64,000 bases of DNA from Shigella phage Sf21. The notes under the pieces are model-generated. The model was not told the origin of the DNA and did not search any database. It saw only the letters and a program-made list of their open reading frames with translations. The stretch lies in sequence record MF327007. One strand, written 5' to 3'. Shown here in pieces: positions 54,794 through 63,711 of the stretch. The number at the start of each line of letters is the position of its first letter. Position 1 is the stretch's first letter. A program made the position numbers and the translations under genes.

Positions 54794-56851
54794 CTACATT
54801 TTGAACTTTTTAGACATTCCGTTGATGTTAACCAAAGAAGCCAAGATTTGAGAAACTTCGTTTTCCTCTTCTTTTGATTCTTCTACAAGGAATTGATTAA
54901 ATCCAGCCATTGGACGAACTTCACCAGTTTCCATTAGATGGTCTCCATCATATACTGATTCTTCTAATTGTTCAGAAGGAGGAACGATTGTACCTTCGAT
55001 TAGATACTTGTTATAAGCAGTTTCTTTCATAAAGTAAGTACTTACTTTATTAATCTTCAGTAAAATTCCACGTGGTAGAATAACTTCAGCTTCTGATGGA
55101 AATCCTGATAAATGACCTGGAACGATAACTTTGATTCGCTCAGCTCCTTTAATTACCATACCCACGCTAGTTTCAGCATCTTCATTAGCATATGTAGAAT
55201 GACTACCCATATGCATCAAATCTTCTGCATCAACAGAACCTTCTCCTTCGCCAGAAAATACTGCACCGGAATCATCTAGAGCCATATAGTTTTTACCATG
55301 CTCGCCGAAGATATTTGGTTTAAGTGATGTCGATACGAAGTTCTTGAAATAGAACATTTTATTTTCAATGTTATGACGCAAAGTTTTAAAGGTAACTTCT
55401 TGTCCACGGTAAAGTGTAGTTCCTGGAGGAAGAACTGAACCTTTAGCGAATGCAGAATCAAGCGTCTCAATATGTTTAATAGCTCGTTCCATATATTCTT
55501 CACGGGTAGAATCTGGTTTACCCAAAAGGAACGAGTTCATTTCAACATATGAATCTGCACAATAATCTTCAATTACATCAGATTCAGCTTGAGTTAATCC
55601 TTTTGGAGTTACTTCAGTGCTTGCGTATTCATATGCCTGAGCAGCAGATTCATTAATCAATTTATAAATGCCATTCATGACAAATTGAATAATAGCTGTC
55701 TTTTCATCTGGCGTAGCTTTAGAACCTTTAACCAAATCATTGACAATTTTCTTAATAACATCAAAGCTATTAGAAATATTAATGTCAGCGAGATCGCTCA
55801 AAATTTTATCGGTTTTATAATCAAAGAATTCTTTATTCTTTAAATATTCTTGAGAACCTTGATATGTTATATCGCTCTGCAGTCTGATAGACGGATCGCG
55901 TAAACGTGCATGGGCCAATGCAATATGATTTCGGAAGCTTTCTAGTTCATAATCGTTAGATTTAAAACGAGAAGCACTTCTCATACCACCGATAGCTCCT
56001 TTGCTGAAGTTTGAACCAATCTGAATAACGCCAGAGTTCATTGGTCCTTCTGCTTTATATACCGGAACTTTAGATTCAAACTCTTGATATTTCTTGGCAG
56101 CGAAGCTATCACCCTGTAGCGAAGCATCGACAGTAGAATATTGAGCTTGTGCTGCTAATCGACGACTAATTTTAGTTTTCTGAATAACAGCTTGATCCGT
56201 GCGCTTATCATTTTCTAAAGCAATAGAAGCAGCAACAGCAACAGCTTTAGGAACAGCATTACCTGTTTTAACGTCTACATAAACATCACCGACCTTTGAT
56301 TCAACTTTTGTGAATAACTCAGTTGAAATAGGAGGTACACCTGGAATGTCTTCTAAATTGGCATTTTTACGGTAAACCATAATATATGCATATTTCTTAT
56401 CATAGTCCCAGATTTCCTTTAAAAGAACATATCGACCTGCTCCTTTAGTACGTACTAAACGGTCAGCAATAACTTGCATTTGACGAGCTGCGCCATTTGT
56501 TTTACTTTTTAGTACGCGGAATAGGCATGCGTCGATTTTATACTGTTTCATTGTTTGAAGAGCAGTATCAAAAACGGCATTAATGACACCAATTGGATTT
56601 CCACCCAAGTTTTTAAGCTTAACTAATGATAGTTTCTCATTAACACCTATCATTACGATATGCATCATTTTATCGCCTGGCTTAACGTTTTTATTCGTAT
56701 CACCACCAGAGGTGTATGTACAAAATCTAAATCCAGGAAGCACGCTTTCTTCGCCGGCTTGAATAGCAAAAATTTGTGGTATTTTATGCTTAGGATTTAA
56801 GTTAACAACCGGCGCCGAAGCGCCGTCAAATAATTCTGTAATAAGTTCCAT
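54794..56851 (-). CDS. Alt-like mono-ADP-ribosyltransferase, paralog 1 (divergent C-terminal catalytic domain)
   Basis: 685 aa; N-terminus MELITELFD shared with paralog 2; R-S-E triad (LYRGQ, STS, EAEVILPRG); SD AAGGATAAATC. Confidence 0.85.
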   Translation of the reverse strand: MELITELFDGASAPVVNLNPKHKIPQIFAIQAGEESVLPGFRFCTYTSGGDTNKNVKPGDKMMHIVMIGVNEKLSLVKLKNLGGNPIGVINAVFDTALQTMKQYKIDACLFRVLKSKTNGAARQMQVIADRLVRTKGAGRYVLLKEIWDYDKKYAYIMVYRKNANLEDIPGVPPISTELFTKVESKVGDVYVDVKTGNAVPKAVAVAASIALENDKRTDQAVIQKTKISRRLAAQAQYSTVDASLQGDSFAAKKYQEFESKVPVYKAEGPMNSGVIQIGSNFSKGAIGGMRSASRFKSNDYELESFRNHIALAHARLRDPSIRLQSDITYQGSQEYLKNKEFFDYKTDKILSDLADINISNSFDVIKKIVNDLVKGSKATPDEKTAIIQFVMNGIYKLINESAAQAYEYASTEVTPKGLTQAESDVIEDYCADSYVEMNSFLLGKPDSTREEYMERAIKHIETLDSAFAKGSVLPPGTTLYRGQEVTFKTLRHNIENKMFYFKNFVSTSLKPNIFGEHGKNYMALDDSGAVFSGEGEGSVDAEDLMHMGSHSTYANEDAETSVGMVIKGAERIKVIVPGHLSGFPSEAEVILPRGILLKINKVSTYFMKETAYNKYLIEGTIVPPSEQLEESVYDGDHLMETGEVRPMAGFNQFLVEESKEEENEVSQILASLVNINGMSKKFKM

Positions 56852-56854
56852 GAT

Positions 56855-58909
56855 TTATCCTTGAACGAACTTGTAAGGCATGTTTGCAATATCTATACAA
56901 GACGCAATAATTCCAAGAGATGATTCTACTTTCTGTTTAACATTTGATGAAACAAATGATGCAAAGTCAACTCTGTCTTCTACTTCAATATCACCTGTCA
57001 TTGCAACCAATTCACCAGTTTCCATTAAATGGTCTCCGTCATAGATTACCGATTCGGTGAGCTCTTCCGTGGTCATAACTTCAGCTTGAATAAGCTTGTT
57101 GTTAGTTTTAACTGTTCCATCATTGTAAGATGCATCAGTTATTTTATTAACTTTGACCATTAATCCACGTGGCAAAATAACTTCCATTTCATTTGAAGGC
57201 GCTAAACTTCCACCGGGTAAAACAACATTGACTTTATCAGCCCCAGTAATAACCCATCCAATTCCGACTAAATTATCGCTAGAATTAACAAGCCCTTCAT
57301 CATTTTTATCGATAGAAATGTTTAGACGCTTTTCATCTGGTAAAACACCAACAGCTGAATCAGTCATCCAAGTACCAAAAATGTTTGGATATAATGATGT
57401 TGATACAAAATTTCTAAAATAAAAAACTCGATTTTTTACCAATGCTTCATATATTGAAGGTAACATTCGCTGTGAACGATATAAAGTAATACCTTTTGGC
57501 AATCGATCACCATTTTTAAAGGCTGAATCTAAATTATCAATAGCTTTTTCTATGTCAGATGCTGTCAAAATACTTGTACGCTCATCTGGATTATATAATC
57601 CCAAAAGAGCATTATTTATGTCTACATATCCTGAACCTACGTATTCACGAATTCCGCGTTTTTGTGCTGGTGTGTATTTAGATGAATCTTTATTTTCGAC
57701 TATAGGATGTAATGACCATCCAGCTGTAAGAGCATATCCACGTAATTCTCTTCGAATAATCTTTGTTTTTATTGCATTCCAAGAATTTTGTACTAACTCA
57801 TTTGCAGCATCTTGGTTTAAATGCGAATGTTTGTTAATATTTCTTTCAAACCAAGCACCTTTATATTTTTCTAAAGTATCATCGACGATAGAAGCAATAG
57901 TTTCTAAAGTTTTTATTGAAGTAATAGATTCTTTTCGTAATTTTTCTAAAGCTTTATTTTTTATTTCTGCATTAATAATGGATTCTTTATCTTCAGGAAT
58001 TATAGAAGCTTCTCTGAATGCCATCCCAGCTGTAACACTGCTAAGAGCATTCTCTAGTGCAAATCCTGAAGTAGAAATTACCGTTAATTCATTAGAATCA
58101 GAAATTAAAGGCGCGTCCGCTGGTTTATTTAATTCTGCCGCTGAAGCCTCAAATTTTTGAAACATCGGTGTTTCAAATCTAGAAGATTCCAATGACTGAC
58201 TTTGTGCAATTGCTCTACGGGAAATTTTAACTTTAACGATTACGGCTTGGTCAGAACGTTTATCATTTTCTTGTGCAATAGATGCAGCAATTGCCTCATT
58301 TTTGGTTACTTGAGCTCCAGTATCTTTATTGATATAAACATCACCGACCTTCGATTCAACTTTAGTAAAGAGCTCGGTGCTAATTTCTGGAACTCCTGGA
58401 ATGTCTTCTAGTGATACATTTTTACGATGTATAAGAATATATGCATACTTTTTATCGTAATCCCAGAGTTCCTTAAGAAGGACGTATCTGCCACCTGAAC
58501 GACTACGGATAAGTCTATCAGCAATAACTTGAATTTGTCGAGCTTGGCCAGCAGTTTTAGACTTAAGAATACGAAGCATACAAGCATCAATTTTATATTG
58601 ACGCATTGTTTGCATTGCAACAGTAAAAACTGAATTGATATAATTAATTGGGCTTGGACCAAGACCTTTTAATTTAGCAATTGAACCTTTAGCAGTTAAT
58701 GTAAAAGGAACAATATGCATCATTTTATCGCCCATTTTTAAATCGCGATTAGTATCACCTCCAGATGTATAGGTACATAAACGAAAGCCTGGTTGTTCAA
58801 TTGCATCATCAACATGAACTGAAAAAATTTGCGGTATTTTCTTCTTTGGATTTAAGTTTGTAATCGGAAGAGTAGTATCTTCGTCAAATAATTCTGTAAT
58901 AAGTTCCAT
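56855..58909 (-). CDS. alt: Alt mono-ADP-ribosyltransferase (packaged, modifies host RNA polymerase)
   Basis: 684 aa from second ATG; R-S-E triad (LYRSQ, STS, EMEVILPRG); TATAAATA (minus) at 58933-58940; adjacent to gene 30. Confidence 0.9.
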   Translation of the reverse strand: MELITELFDEDTTLPITNLNPKKKIPQIFSVHVDDAIEQPGFRLCTYTSGGDTNRDLKMGDKMMHIVPFTLTAKGSIAKLKGLGPSPINYINSVFTVAMQTMRQYKIDACMLRILKSKTAGQARQIQVIADRLIRSRSGGRYVLLKELWDYDKKYAYILIHRKNVSLEDIPGVPEISTELFTKVESKVGDVYINKDTGAQVTKNEAIAASIAQENDKRSDQAVIVKVKISRRAIAQSQSLESSRFETPMFQKFEASAAELNKPADAPLISDSNELTVISTSGFALENALSSVTAGMAFREASIIPEDKESIINAEIKNKALEKLRKESITSIKTLETIASIVDDTLEKYKGAWFERNINKHSHLNQDAANELVQNSWNAIKTKIIRRELRGYALTAGWSLHPIVENKDSSKYTPAQKRGIREYVGSGYVDINNALLGLYNPDERTSILTASDIEKAIDNLDSAFKNGDRLPKGITLYRSQRMLPSIYEALVKNRVFYFRNFVSTSLYPNIFGTWMTDSAVGVLPDEKRLNISIDKNDEGLVNSSDNLVGIGWVITGADKVNVVLPGGSLAPSNEMEVILPRGLMVKVNKITDASYNDGTVKTNNKLIQAEVMTTEELTESVIYDGDHLMETGELVAMTGDIEVEDRVDFASFVSSNVKQKVESSLGIIASCIDIANMPYKFVQG

Positions 58910-58932
58910 CATAGCCTCTCTAGTGTTTATTC

Positions 58933-58940
58933 TATTTATA
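58933..58940 (-). promoter_or_regulatory. T4 late promoter core TATAAATA (alt)
   Basis: exact TATAAATA on minus strand ~25 nt upstream of alt start. Confidence 0.7.
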
Positions 58941-58947
58941 AAATTAA

Positions 58948-58964
58948 AGGCCCGAAGGCCTTTA
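58948..58964 (-). terminator. UUCG hairpin between ORF 58962..59150 and alt late promoter
   Basis: minus strand AAGGCC-TTCG-GGCCTT. Confidence 0.5.
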
Positions 58965-59150
58965 GTAATCTAGTGGTAAGAGAGTACGATATATTTCAAA
59001 CTTTGGTCCTTTTTCATAGGCATCAAATGTTTCTGTAAATTTATTATAAGCGTATGCATCTACAAATTCGAGAATGACTTGTGATACAGAAGTAGAAACA
59101 TCTCCACCTTCTTTTTGAGCAATGACAATTGTTTCTAAGTAAGCTTTCAT
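58962..59150 (-). CDS. small hypothetical protein
   Basis: 62-aa ORF overlapping gene 30 stop by 4 nt. Confidence 0.45.
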   Translation of the reverse strand: MKAYLETIVIAQKEGGDVSTSVSQVILEFVDAYAYNKFTETFDAYEKGPKFEIYRTLLPLDY

Positions 59151-60607
59151 AAACCAGTTACCTCATGAAAATCACCAAATACATCCTCGAATGTATTAGC
59201 TTTAGTTTTATCTTCACGTAAACGAATCGCAATCGGAAGAAATAATTTAACGTAATCAGTGCGGCCATCAGATTTTAACCAACCGTTGCATTCGCACTCT
59301 AGAATTTTTCCAATATAATAATTTTGGTTTTCCATAATGCGAGTACGGTCAAGTTCATGCGATTTTACACCGGCTTTATCTTTTAAGCCTGAACCAGCAT
59401 TTACTTTAATTTTTCCACACTCTGACTCAAGAATAAATCCACCTGCTTTAGTAGGGTCTTTACGGTGAGGATAAATTCCTACAATTTTTAAATCAACATC
59501 AATTACTTCTTTAAATTTATAGAGATTTTTTGAACGAGCATTTTCCCATAATCCATCGGTATTTTTGAGAATAATACCTTCAAGACCTTGGTCAATATAC
59601 TTTTTATAAATTACCTTAGCTTCATCTAGGTTATTTACTACTTGGTTTTCAATTAAAATTACTTTATCATATCCTGATGTCATTTGTTCTAGTTTAGAAA
59701 AACGTACATCATATTTTAAACGAAACGCCGGAAGACCGTATATTTCTACTAACGGGACATAATCCCAGACCTGAAACTTCATGCATTGAGCTTCTTTTTC
59801 AGAAATGGTTCCCTTTAAAGATTTATTGGCGATGCCATTAGATGCAGTACGAGATTCAGCTACTTCGGCAAACTCTTTAGCTTTACTGATTTCAGGAGCA
59901 TCAAAAAGAAAATCTAGACCTTCTGGCTCTTTTTCAACTTGCTCATGATATACCAATTCGCCATCAATTAACACGCCTTCTGGATGAATCTGGCGGGCTT
60001 CTGCAGTCATTTTGATTAACTCTTCCTTAAGAAGATCTAATCCTAGATATTCATTACCAGCTCGTGATAAAAGACGAACATCATCTAATTCATCGCCTCG
60101 GACTTCAGCAAAACACCGAGCTCCATCTGCTTTTAACTGTGCAAAGGCTGGAAATTTGATATTCTTACTAATGCCTTTTTCATCATAAGAACTTGCCAGC
60201 ATTTGAGGTTGTTCAGGAATTAAACCTGGCCAAACTTTATTTGCAATAGATACTGAAGCACCGCATTCAAGATCTCGCATCATCACTCGACGCAAAACTT
60301 CAACATCATCCTTTTTACCATCAGTGATATATCCAGTTAATTCCTCAATTGCAGCATTTCCAGTCAATTTCCGAGTAGCTAACGTGAATTCAATGAAGTC
60401 AAGCATATCGGTAATAGTCAGCATTCCAAAACTCTGGGTAGCAATACCAGGTTTAGGCCATTTCTTGATATAATACTGTAACCCACGAGAATAAGTCAGA
60501 CGATATACTCGTTTAAGCAATTCATTATCTTTATTCTTTTCAAGAATTGCTTGCTTCTGCTTAGTTGATCCAATAGATGCTATTTCATTCAGAATTTTAA
60601 GAATCAT
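59147..60607 (-). CDS. 30: ATP-dependent DNA ligase (gene 30)
   Basis: 486 aa; N-terminus MILKILNEIASIGSTKQKQAIL; adenylation motif KADGARC. Confidence 0.97.
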   Translation of the reverse strand: MILKILNEIASIGSTKQKQAILEKNKDNELLKRVYRLTYSRGLQYYIKKWPKPGIATQSFGMLTITDMLDFIEFTLATRKLTGNAAIEELTGYITDGKKDDVEVLRRVMMRDLECGASVSIANKVWPGLIPEQPQMLASSYDEKGISKNIKFPAFAQLKADGARCFAEVRGDELDDVRLLSRAGNEYLGLDLLKEELIKMTAEARQIHPEGVLIDGELVYHEQVEKEPEGLDFLFDAPEISKAKEFAEVAESRTASNGIANKSLKGTISEKEAQCMKFQVWDYVPLVEIYGLPAFRLKYDVRFSKLEQMTSGYDKVILIENQVVNNLDEAKVIYKKYIDQGLEGIILKNTDGLWENARSKNLYKFKEVIDVDLKIVGIYPHRKDPTKAGGFILESECGKIKVNAGSGLKDKAGVKSHELDRTRIMENQNYYIGKILECECNGWLKSDGRTDYVKLFLPIAIRLREDKTKANTFEDVFGDFHEVTGL

Positions 60608-60873
60608 TGTTCATCCTTCAGAGTTTGATTTACATTTCTATTATAAATCAATTCATCATTAAGCTCAGGCAAAGACCTGTGATATGTAGTTCTAACTTTA
60701 TTTCCTTGCATCCAGTGCTTGACGTAAATGAAACCTTGCTCTACACATTTTTTAAAAATTCGTTCGTCTTTTTGAGCTCGGAATTCCGGATTGCATCTAA
60801 AAAATTGATTTACGTGACCATAATCACGTGTAGTATTACCTTCATTTTCATAAATAGTGTGAACGACAAACAT
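60604..60873 (-). CDS. hypothetical protein (30.1 position)
   Basis: 89-aa ORF overlapping gene 30 start. Confidence 0.6.
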   Translation of the reverse strand: MFVVHTIYENEGNTTRDYGHVNQFFRCNPEFRAQKDERIFKKCVEQGFIYVKHWMQGNKVRTTYHRSLPELNDELIYNRNVNQTLKDEQ

Positions 60874-61712
60874 TAGAATGCTCCTTGGAAAATATTATCA
60901 CCGCTAGTAGGTCTATTATACAAATACTCTATGCCACCAGGTTTAATATAGTTCCATGTCTGAAATGGATGTGTCTGATATGGATGGTATAGATGATTAT
61001 AAGGATTAAATCCAGGAGTTCTCCAGGTAGTGTTCCAAGGAAAAGAATCGTTTTTAACCATCTTCTCAATTAAATCTTTTATAGCTTTTTCACTATCAAA
61101 ACTTTCTTTATTTTCCTTCGGCGAAAAAAGCTTATTTTCTACATCATTCCATGTATAAACTCGCTGAGCAGTTTTTGGAATATTGTCACGCTCTCCTCGA
61201 GCCATCCAATAAACAGGAACATTTAATATTTCACTCGCATGATCGCAGTGATGAGCGAGATCGTCAATATAACAAATTACGTTATATTTCTCTTTTGCCT
61301 TTTTAAACAACTCTTCTTTTGAAGAATCATGACCACACATCATTACTTCTGAGAAGGCACCAGGAAAAAGAGCATTCAAATTAAATTGACGATTCAACAG
61401 AGCGTCAATAGAATCACCCAATGCTGTAACAGCTACAAAATTATAATCTTCTTTTAATTTGTTAATTACACACAGGGCATCTTTATATGGAGACAAGTAT
61501 CGAATAAAATCCGAACGATTGTATTTTTCAATTAGCTTAACGCCAAGTTCTTCATCGCAATTAAATAGTTTACCAGGAGAAATAAATTTCTCATCCTGGA
61601 TCATTTTTAAAATATGTTCTAACGGAAGATTATATTTCTGGGCAAAATAAGGAAGACCTGATTGCCAGCTTAAACATACTCCATCAATATCAGTTAAAAT
61701 AGTAGGCTTCAT
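60873..61712 (-). CDS. HAD-superfamily hydrolase (30.2 position)
   Basis: 279 aa; HAD motif I ILTDIDGV near N-terminus and acidic motif CYIDDLAHH. Confidence 0.7.
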   Translation of the reverse strand: MKPTILTDIDGVCLSWQSGLPYFAQKYNLPLEHILKMIQDEKFISPGKLFNCDEELGVKLIEKYNRSDFIRYLSPYKDALCVINKLKEDYNFVAVTALGDSIDALLNRQFNLNALFPGAFSEVMMCGHDSSKEELFKKAKEKYNVICYIDDLAHHCDHASEILNVPVYWMARGERDNIPKTAQRVYTWNDVENKLFSPKENKESFDSEKAIKDLIEKMVKNDSFPWNTTWRTPGFNPYNHLYHPYQTHPFQTWNYIKPGGIEYLYNRPTSGDNIFQGAF

Positions 61713-62173
61713 AGAGAATCTCTTAATAGGTTTAACACATTAATAAATTCAGCTTCGGTTAGTATTGTATCATCTTTTGTTAGACCACTAGCCATGCTGT
61801 GCTTCAAAACTTTTCCTTTCGAGGCTTGTAATGCATCACGAAAGCCCTTGTTTTGGATCGCTGCTTCAAAATATGCATTTGTGTATAATTCTTTCCACGC
61901 CGGGGAGTATCTTGAAAACGGAACTCCAAGCCAGAAGAGGGTCCCACGGTCCTGAGCTCTAGCATAAGACCTTCCAGCTTGTTGGGCGGCAAGCCCAGAT
62001 AACCCAAATATACGACGTTGTTGTTCAACATTTTTCACCTTGCATCCTTGGAGGAATCCTTCGAGACCTCCAAATTGAATACCATCCATAACGAAAGGCC
62101 ATTGAGCGAAATTACTTAATGCACATGATGGCCATCTAAAATTACTTCTAATCTCTAACTCAGACATTTTCAA
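61709..62173 (-). CDS. NADAR / YbiA-like (DUF1768) domain protein (30.3 position)
   Basis: 154 aa; block SNFAQWPFVMDGIQFGGLEGFLQGCK resembles E. coli YbiA FSNFAAWP...DG...SEHYFQAQK. Confidence 0.65.
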   Translation of the reverse strand: MKMSELEIRSNFRWPSCALSNFAQWPFVMDGIQFGGLEGFLQGCKVKNVEQQRRIFGLSGLAAQQAGRSYARAQDRGTLFWLGVPFSRYSPAWKELYTNAYFEAAIQNKGFRDALQASKGKVLKHSMASGLTKDDTILTEAEFINVLNLLRDSL

Positions 62174-62366
62174 TGCTTATAATTTCAACATCAGCCCAAT
62201 GACCATAGCAAGGAAGACGAAATTCAACTGGCCAGTTAGGGTCCTTTTCTAATATAATAGACTCAACTTGTGGTTCTTCGTGTTCATCAGTATACGGATT
62301 TTTATCTGTTACTTTATATGTGACCTTAATGTACTGAATTCCAAAAATCTTATTAATTATATTCAT
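62160..62366 (-). CDS. small hypothetical protein
   Basis: 68-aa ORF in overlapping array. Confidence 0.5.
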   Translation of the reverse strand: MNIINKIFGIQYIKVTYKVTDKNPYTDEHEEPQVESIILEKDPNWPVEFRLPCYGHWADVEIISIENV

Positions 62367-63253: not shown

Positions 63254-63321
63254 TTTTATTCTCCGAGATGTTTAATTGCGGTACAGGTATATAATATCAT
63301 ATCCTGTACCAAAGTAAACAA

Positions 63322-63681: not shown

Positions 63682-63711
63682 ATACTATCACAAAGGAACC
63701 ATACTGTAAAC
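63682..63711 (-). promoter_or_regulatory. T4-type early promoter (conserved module copy)
   Basis: CATAAAGTTGTTTAC-N18-TAGTAT; precedes 63322..63654. Confidence 0.7.

Follow-up and report, generated by a model that had tools for sequence, protein, structure and literature searches.

An allele of the T4 NADAR gene adfN and a predicted HAD-superfamily phosphatase gene in the 30.x region of Shigella phage Sf21

Gene order and transcription signals of the 30.x region

The stretch of Shigella phage Sf21 DNA that we analyzed (64,000 nt of sequence record MF327007, hereafter the window) comes from a T4-like phage (Tequatrovirus) and reproduces the gene order of T4 gene for gene. A 1.8-kb region of it shares 97% identity with many Tequatrovirus genomes, and 658 phage records match. 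On the minus strand, the genes run in the order 30.8, 30.7, 30.6, 30.5, 30.4, 30.3, 30.2, 30.1, gene 30 for the ligase, alt.1, and two Alt paralogs. An initial annotation, made from the sequence alone, had placed a NADAR/YbiA-like protein and a HAD hydrolase between positions 60873 and 62173, upstream of the ligase and the Alt genes. This gene order is correct; both ORFs are present at those coordinates on the minus strand, and 30.1, the ligase, alt.1, and the two ADP-ribosyltransferase (ART) genes lie downstream on the same strand.

At the center of the region, 30.3 (61709..62167, minus strand) encodes a 152-aa protein of family PF08010, a predicted phage-type NADAR DNA ADP-ribosylglycohydrolase whose activity is known from the T4 protein. 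As listed, the ORF opens with TTG at 62173, but the true start is likely the ATG at 62167, which gives 152 aa as annotated in T4. A 75-aa internal ORF, 30.3', lies within the gene in another frame (61804..62031, minus strand) and corresponds to what the T4 annotation describes as an internal translation product. The flanking genes on the same strand are 30.4 upstream (62160..62366, minus strand; 68 aa; phrog_2042) and 30.2 immediately downstream (60873..61712, minus strand), the latter encoding a predicted HAD-superfamily phosphatase of 279 aa. Next come 30.1 (60604..60873, minus strand), a DUF3045 gene (Pfam PF11243, E=1e-62), and gene 30 (59147..60607, minus strand), which encodes the ATP-dependent DNA ligase (Pfam PF01068, E=1e-32). 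The short gene alt.1 (58962..59150, minus strand), identified by its ORF and T4 synteny, is the final gene of a compact block that starts at 30.7. Beyond it lie alt (56855..58912, minus strand), which encodes a 685-aa ADP-ribosyltransferase (Pfam PF03496, E=9.5e-36), and a second Alt paralog, also of 685 aa (54794..56851, minus strand) and 41% identical to the first. Here Sf21 departs from T4, which has one Alt plus the remnants alt.-1 and alt.-2, whereas Sf21 has two full-length paralogs.

From 30.7 to alt.1, the stop and start codons at each junction overlap, with gaps of -1 to -11 nt. Two early-promoter-like sites precede this block on the minus strand: TTTACT-16-TATTAT at 63291..63318, upstream of 30.7, and TTTACA-17-TAGTAT at 63682..63710, upstream of 30.8 and just past a terminator-like hairpin at 63761-63740. 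At the other end, a 49-nt gap ahead of alt holds a terminator-like GC hairpin with a T-run (58945..58964, minus strand), which closes the 30.x/ligase unit, and then a TATAAATA box (58933..58940, minus strand) that matches the T4 late-promoter consensus and precedes the alt start codon by ≈20 nt. Alt is a late protein that is packaged in the T4 virion, and the hairpin and late-promoter box between alt.1 and alt fit this expression pattern.

Identity, fold, and catalytic residues of gp30.3

The gp30.3 protein of Sf21 matches the Pfam family PF08010 (Phage_30_3) over profile positions 1-138 of 138 with an E-value of 5e-70. Its score, 234.1 bits where the cut-off is 36, answers positively the NADAR profile search that the initial annotation had proposed as a check. 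Relative to T4 gp30.3, 150 of 152 residues are identical; the only differences, M125I and N143D, both fall outside the catalytic residues. A protein of phage REP2 is 100% identical. Single-sequence phmmer searches of PDB sequences with either gp30.3 or gp30.2 returned nothing meaningful, which is why we turned to family profiles and structure models. With a profile built from 37 family members, the best match among PDB sequences was Escherichia coli YbiA (2b3w, E=0.0033), aligned over exactly the SNFAQWPFVMDGIQFGGLEGFLQGCK block that ORF 61709..62173 contains and that corresponds to residues 18-43 when counted from the ATG at 62167. The resemblance of this block to YbiA, noticed at the outset by eye, therefore goes beyond chance.

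The structure model points the same way. The AlphaFold model of gp30.3 has a pLDDT of 92.3, and a Foldseek search of the PDB with this model gave as its top three matches YbiA (2b3w), a Phytophthora NADAR (8bau), and a Geobacter NADAR (8bat), with no other credible match beyond these three. The published catalytic residues, the Glu and Lys of an E-x-F-x-Q-x(2)-K block, land at E36 and K43 of gp30.3 when numbering starts at the ATG at 62167. None of the 37 homologues departs from E36 or H123, and at least 90% share K43; in the model, H123 sits on the strand formed by residues 120-123. The protein is full length, and its C-terminal helix (residues 138-151) is intact. The assignment to a NADAR/YbiA-like family thus stands on the PF08010 match, the profile match to YbiA, and a model that only NADAR structures match. 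On sequence and model grounds, ORF 61709-62167 is the Sf21 allele of T4 30.3, now called adfN, and its product a stand-alone enzyme of the phage NADAR type.

Comparison with characterized proteins places gp30.3 within this family. It shares with AdfN-T4 its length, the residues E36, K43, and H123, the intact C-terminal helix, and the position of its gene between 30.4 and 30.2. The 30.3 allele of RB69, a DarTG1-sensitive phage, is 414 nt long and has lost the C-terminal helix, which Sf21 gp30.3 keeps. YbiA is the best structural match to the gp30.3 model (TM 0.67, E=1.6e-4), and the two proteins share an SNFA..P..DG....E.FQ..K block. However, YbiA is only ≈17% identical to gp30.3, belongs to another Pfam family (DUF1768/PF08719 rather than PF08010), has another biological role, and carries a Glu where gp30.3 has His123. 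This replacement of the YbiA Glu by His is what defines the phage NADARs, the gp30.3 proteins (PMC11125620; Schuller et al., PMC11543638).

The fold of the gp30.3 model is also common to DarG1, the NADAR antitoxin of the DarTG1 system, represented by the Geobacter lovleyi structure 8bat. DarG1 and AdfN catalyze the same reaction, in which ADP-ribose is taken off guanine in DNA (PMC11825919, PMC11543638). DarG1 differs in having an N-terminal extension and an Asp at the third catalytic position; gp30.3 lacks the extension and has His at that position. The two proteins also differ in that AdfN does not neutralize DarT1 in uninfected cells. We found no DarT toxin gene beside gp30.3, whose neighbors are 30.4 and 30.2; the nearby ARTs are of the Alt type (PF03496) and lie past the ligase. 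Since no DarT adjoins it, gp30.3 is an orphan antitoxin homologue and not part of a DarTG1 toxin–antitoxin system.

The HAD-superfamily protein gp30.2

The adjacent protein, gp30.2 (ORF 60873..61712), begins MKPTILTDIDGV and contains the DIDGV sequence that had been read as HAD motif I. That reading is borne out by an alignment of 35 homologues with four HAD motifs, in which D8, D10, and K132 are invariant and T96 and D150/D151 are conserved in at least 90%, and by a model with a HAD fold. The model is confident over residues 1-200, which form the core and a C1 cap and include D8/D10, T96, K132, and D150/D151. It matches the Rossmannoid HAD core fold and is that of a capped enzyme, apparently nearest to 5'(3')-deoxyribonucleotidases. 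Residues ≈200-279 form a disordered tail in the model. Across the 35 homologues, this ≈80-residue tail is variable and often missing, and a C-terminal IEYLxxxPT motif is common to many members.

When the gp30.2 family profile was compared with PDB sequences, the best match was mouse cdN (2jao, E=0.024), and the alignment pairs W16-Q-S-G-L of gp30.2 with F-E-S-G-L of 2jao just past motif I. Compared with cdN/mdN and the Staphylococcus epidermidis protein 3bwv (NT5C, PF06941), gp30.2 falls below all Pfam thresholds and has the extra disordered C-terminal tail. The HAD profile search that had been suggested gave a divided answer: the Sf21 protein itself has no match in Pfam or NCBIfam at E<=1, whereas 11 of 35 relatives weakly match Pfam Hydrolase (best E=3.5e-4). 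Six of the 35 match NT5C. A search of PHROGs yielded no functional name for gp30.2, only weak hints toward polynucleotide kinase (E=0.002) and phosphoheptose isomerase. The family occurs in ≈1,438 phage records, essentially all of them Straboviridae. A literature search turned up no relevant paper on gp30.2 or the T4 gene 30.2, and a nutrient-dependent phenotype sought for 30.2 in T4 Tn-seq data (LB versus M9) was not seen, with a log2FC of -0.10 (10.1101/2025.11.20.689424).

From the conserved motifs and the model, the classification of gp30.2 as a HAD hydrolase is solid. That it acts on nucleotides, as first proposed, is no more than our best guess, because the scores of other HAD subfamilies come close. 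We infer the catalytic roles and the substrate class as follows. The protein would be a Mg-dependent phosphatase, separate in function from AdfN, with Asp8 as the nucleophile, Asp10 as the acid/base, and Thr96, Lys132, and Asp150/151 completing the site. Its predicted helical C1 cap is typical of enzymes with small-molecule substrates, most likely nucleotide monophosphates in this case.

Role of AdfN and its relation to neighboring genes

Whereas the identity, fold, and residues of gp30.3 were observed here, its activity and phenotype are those of the 99%-identical T4 protein as described in the literature. The DarTG1 resistance of T-even phages was mapped to gene 30.3, which was renamed adfN (Johannesman et al., Nat Commun 2025, PMC11825919). 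AdfN-T4 is necessary for this resistance, as seen with T4 and T2 deletions, and sufficient, as seen in the rescue of RB69 (PMC11825919). Purified AdfN strips ADP-ribose from DarT1-modified DNA, and the E36A and K43A substitutions impair the protein (PMC11825919). T4 gp30.3 is guanosine-specific in vitro and hydrolyzes guanosine-ADPr (Cihlova et al., PMC11125620), and the T4 NADAR was used again in a 2026 paper, in which it acts on guanine-ADPr (PMC12945103). In a T4 Tn-seq preprint, insertions in 30.3 are lost on DarTG1 hosts (10.1101/2025.11.20.689424), with a log2FC of -7.25 (q=0). The same gene is dispensable without DarTG1, insertions being recovered at 27 of 28 TA sites (10.1101/2025.11.20.689424). 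We infer that the Sf21 allele would behave like T4 AdfN.

The initial annotation had suggested that the NADAR protein could protect phage DNA from host ADP-ribosylating toxins. For the T4 protein, such protection has been demonstrated against DarTG1 (PMC11825919), and the experiments that the annotation recommended, removal of ADP-ribose from DNA and plating of a knockout on DarTG hosts, are already published for T4 with the predicted outcome. As T4 gp30.3 is published as AdfN, the idea was right but known. Likewise, both the NADAR assignment and the co-location with ARTs were published earlier; the NADARs of T4-like phages were described as early genes encoded along with ARTs (Iyer et al., PMC9503650). 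With the biology of AdfN already in print, the Sf21 gene adds only another near-identical allele.

Taken together, these data suggest the following explanation. In Sf21, early transcription from promoters near 30.8/30.7 would yield a polycistronic message that covers 30.3, 30.2, 30.1, and the ligase gene and extends to alt.1, and adfN would be expressed as part of it. Host DarT1 would ADP-ribosylate guanines in replicating phage DNA, and AdfN, using E36, K43, and H123, would cleave the bond between guanine N2 and the ribose to restore replicable DNA. AdfN would then act as DarG1 does, as an orphan copy of that antitoxin. We consider this explanation as a whole, an anti-DarT1 adfN allele in the early 30.x unit next to an independent gp30.2 phosphatase, to be very probable. 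The orphan antitoxin picture is nonetheless incomplete. AdfN-T4 does not rescue uninfected E. coli from DarT1 toxicity and only partially rescues non-T-even phages (PMC11825919, PMC11125620), and it is reported to need a further T-even factor (Johannesman et al., PMC11825919). What it lacks is a factor, or a substrate context, specific to the phage.

Two other roles for the NADAR protein itself were weighed against defense from DarT1. One, that gp30.3 is a metabolic N-glycosidase of the YbiA type that acts on riboflavin-pathway intermediates rather than on DNA, draws on YbiA being the top match by both structure and sequence and on the presence of riboflavin-pathway N-glycosidases in the NADAR superfamily (PMC9503650). 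It has a negligible chance of being correct, given that gp30.3 is a member of the phage gp30.3 subfamily and has His where YbiA has Glu, and that direct evidence from the T4 protein covers both de-ADP-ribosylation of DNA and the DarTG1 phenotype (PMC11825919, PMC11125620, 10.1101/2025.11.20.689424). The other is a writer–eraser module in which the phage expresses the NADAR protein together with its own Alt ARTs to reverse or tune their marks, an idea raised by the location of adfN and the alt genes within ≈3 kb on one strand. The proposal that adfN shares an early transcription unit with two ADP-ribose writers is not supported, given the intervening hairpin (58964-58945) and TATAAATA box, a terminator and late promoter by their appearance, which part alt from the 30.x unit. 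Comparative gene order is equally unfavorable to a functional grouping of writer and eraser: in Acinetobacter phage Berthold alt is on the opposite strand, and five other phages have their NADAR gene at a distance from alt. Its neighbors are tRNA genes in a Klebsiella phage, recombination genes in one from Vibrio, and NAD-salvage genes in one from Aeromonas; the Rhizobium and Ralstonia phages place it at yet other sites. The targets of Alt are protein arginines. The substrate of the phage NADARs, by contrast, is guanine-ADPr in nucleic acids (PMC11125620, PMC12945103). Nor do the T4 Tn-seq data favor tuning of Alt, with adfN non-essential when DarTG1 is absent and alt insertions neutral when it is present (log2FC -0.01; 10.1101/2025.11.20.689424). 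On the strength of the terminator, the late promoter, and the comparative gene order, we dropped a writer–eraser operon with alt as highly improbable, and defense against DarT1 is the reading we retain.

The T-even factor that AdfN-T4 is reported to need makes gp30.2 an obvious candidate, for example as an enzyme that processes released ADP-ribose or a phosphorylated intermediate. Its gene is translationally coupled directly after 30.3 through a 4-nt overlap, RB69, in which ectopic AdfN is fully functional (PMC11825919), also carries 30.2, and 30.3 and 30.2 likewise adjoin in an Acinetobacter phage. Under DarTG1, however, 30.2 is neutral in the T4 Tn-seq data (Data S6, control versus DarTG1: 71 TA sites, log2FC -0.12, p=0.61, q=1; 10.1101/2025.11.20.689424), against -7.25 for 30.3, and the NADAR reaction should require no phosphatase step. 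Adjacency is likewise lost in most distant NADAR-bearing phages: 30.2 lies beside the NADAR gene only in T4-like phages and the Acinetobacter phage and not in five other NADAR-bearing phages, and in the Klebsiella and Aeromonas phages it stays near the ligase. Tn-seq neutrality and this loss of adjacency argue against gp30.2 as an AdfN helper, a role that we regard as very hard to credit, and we conclude that 30.2 is an independent neighbor of adfN whose linkage reflects inherited synteny rather than a functional partnership. A better, though still improbable, candidate for the missing T-even-specific factor is gp30.4. Only two genes reach significance genome-wide under DarTG1 in T4, 30.3 and 30.4 (Data S6 header, 10.1101/2025.11.20.689424), the latter with a log2FC of -1.79 (p=1e-4, q=0.014). 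Upstream genes of the same block are unaffected (30.6, -0.30; 30.7, -0.19) or not significant (30.5, -3.00, p=0.64; 10.1101/2025.11.20.689424), and the preprint text that we consulted makes no remark on 30.4. By tblastn, 718 phage records contain gp30.4; all are enterobacterial T-evens, RB69 among them, and this range agrees with the T-even restriction reported for AdfN-T4 activity (PMC11825919); because tblastn is insensitive with a 68-aa query, this restricted distribution is weak evidence. Against a genuine helper role, insertions in 30.4 could simply lower AdfN translation, and partial depletion fits such an effect. Because 30.4 and adfN share 8 nt at the stop of one and the start of the other, lost translational coupling to adfN is the simplest explanation of the 30.4 signal. 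If gp30.4 were a helper rather than a bystander, this would explain both the failure of AdfN in uninfected cells and the partial protection of non-T-evens, and 30.4, adjoining adfN, is a cheap candidate for the T-even factor that potentiates AdfN.

With defense against DarT1 as the preferred reading, AdfN represents a textbook-style orphan antitoxin homologue in a lytic phage, an enzyme that would erase the DNA mark laid down by a host defense. Finding adfN in a genome allows resistance to DarTG1-type defenses to be predicted, which is relevant to the choice of T4-like phages for therapeutic use.

Gene 30.4 and the reading frames of adfN

Upstream of adfN, the gene for the NADAR enzyme gp30.3, lies gene 30.4 (62160-62366, minus strand; 68 aa), whose stop and the adfN start overlap by 8 nt. 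In a public transposon-sequencing table for T4 challenged with DarTG1, only 30.3 and 30.4 reach genome-wide significance, 30.4 with a log2 fold change of -1.79 and q = 0.014 (10.1101/2025.11.20.689424). The 30.4 signal could reflect polarity or, alternatively, loss of the missing AdfN helper, the additional T-even phage factor that AdfN of T4 is reported to need. Homologues of gp30.4 turned up in 718 records, all of them enterobacterial T-even phages, with RB69 among them.

Sf21 also retains the T4 reading frame 30.3', a 75-aa ORF lying within adfN in another frame (61804-62031, minus strand); the T4 annotation describes it as [quoted passage not shown]. Elsewhere adfN itself is often short, with gp30.3 products of 83-126 aa in many T4-like genomes and metagenome contigs (entries P0104-P0107, P0113, and P0117 of the homologue list), as in phage UGJNEcP4, where a 30.3 product of 91 aa is encoded next to a 212-aa 30.2. 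These alleles suggest recurrent truncation or pseudogenization of adfN, of which RB69 would be another case.

The alt paralogs and the alt.1-alt gap

Sf21 encodes two tandem full-length Alt paralogs (54794-58912, minus strand), each of 685 aa and 41% identical to one another. T4 carries a single alt along with two short remnants, alt.-1 and alt.-2, annotated there as an ancient duplication of the first portion of alt. The 49 nt that separate alt.1 from alt contain a terminator-like hairpin and, directly after it, a late-promoter TATAAATA box (58933-58964, minus strand). These elements mark the point at which early expression of the 30.x/ligase unit gives way to late expression of alt.

The gp30.2 tail and the wider NADAR and HAD families

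The C-terminal ≈80 residues of the HAD-superfamily protein gp30.2 (60873-61112, minus strand) are predicted to be disordered (pLDDT <55), are rich in aromatic residues, Asn, and Pro, and terminate in a short motif, G-I-E-Y-L-x-N/R-x-P-T, that is shared by Tequatrovirus, Klebsiella, and further relatives. In character the tail resembles a docking peptide for a partner. Many family members have no tail at all, including the ≈200-aa Acinetobacter and Mosigvirus-type forms.

Beyond the T-evens, the NADAR gene of Aeromonas phage AS-szw (locus L006, 6001-10509) adjoins genes for PRPP synthetase and nicotinamide phosphoribosyltransferase, and a distant 30.2-like HAD gene of Vibrio phage QD01 (locus L011, 863-7589) sits amid NAD-salvage (NAMPT and nicotinate PRTase), radical-SAM, and queC genes. 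These neighbors hint at an NAD or nucleotide-metabolism setting for both families outside the T-even phages.
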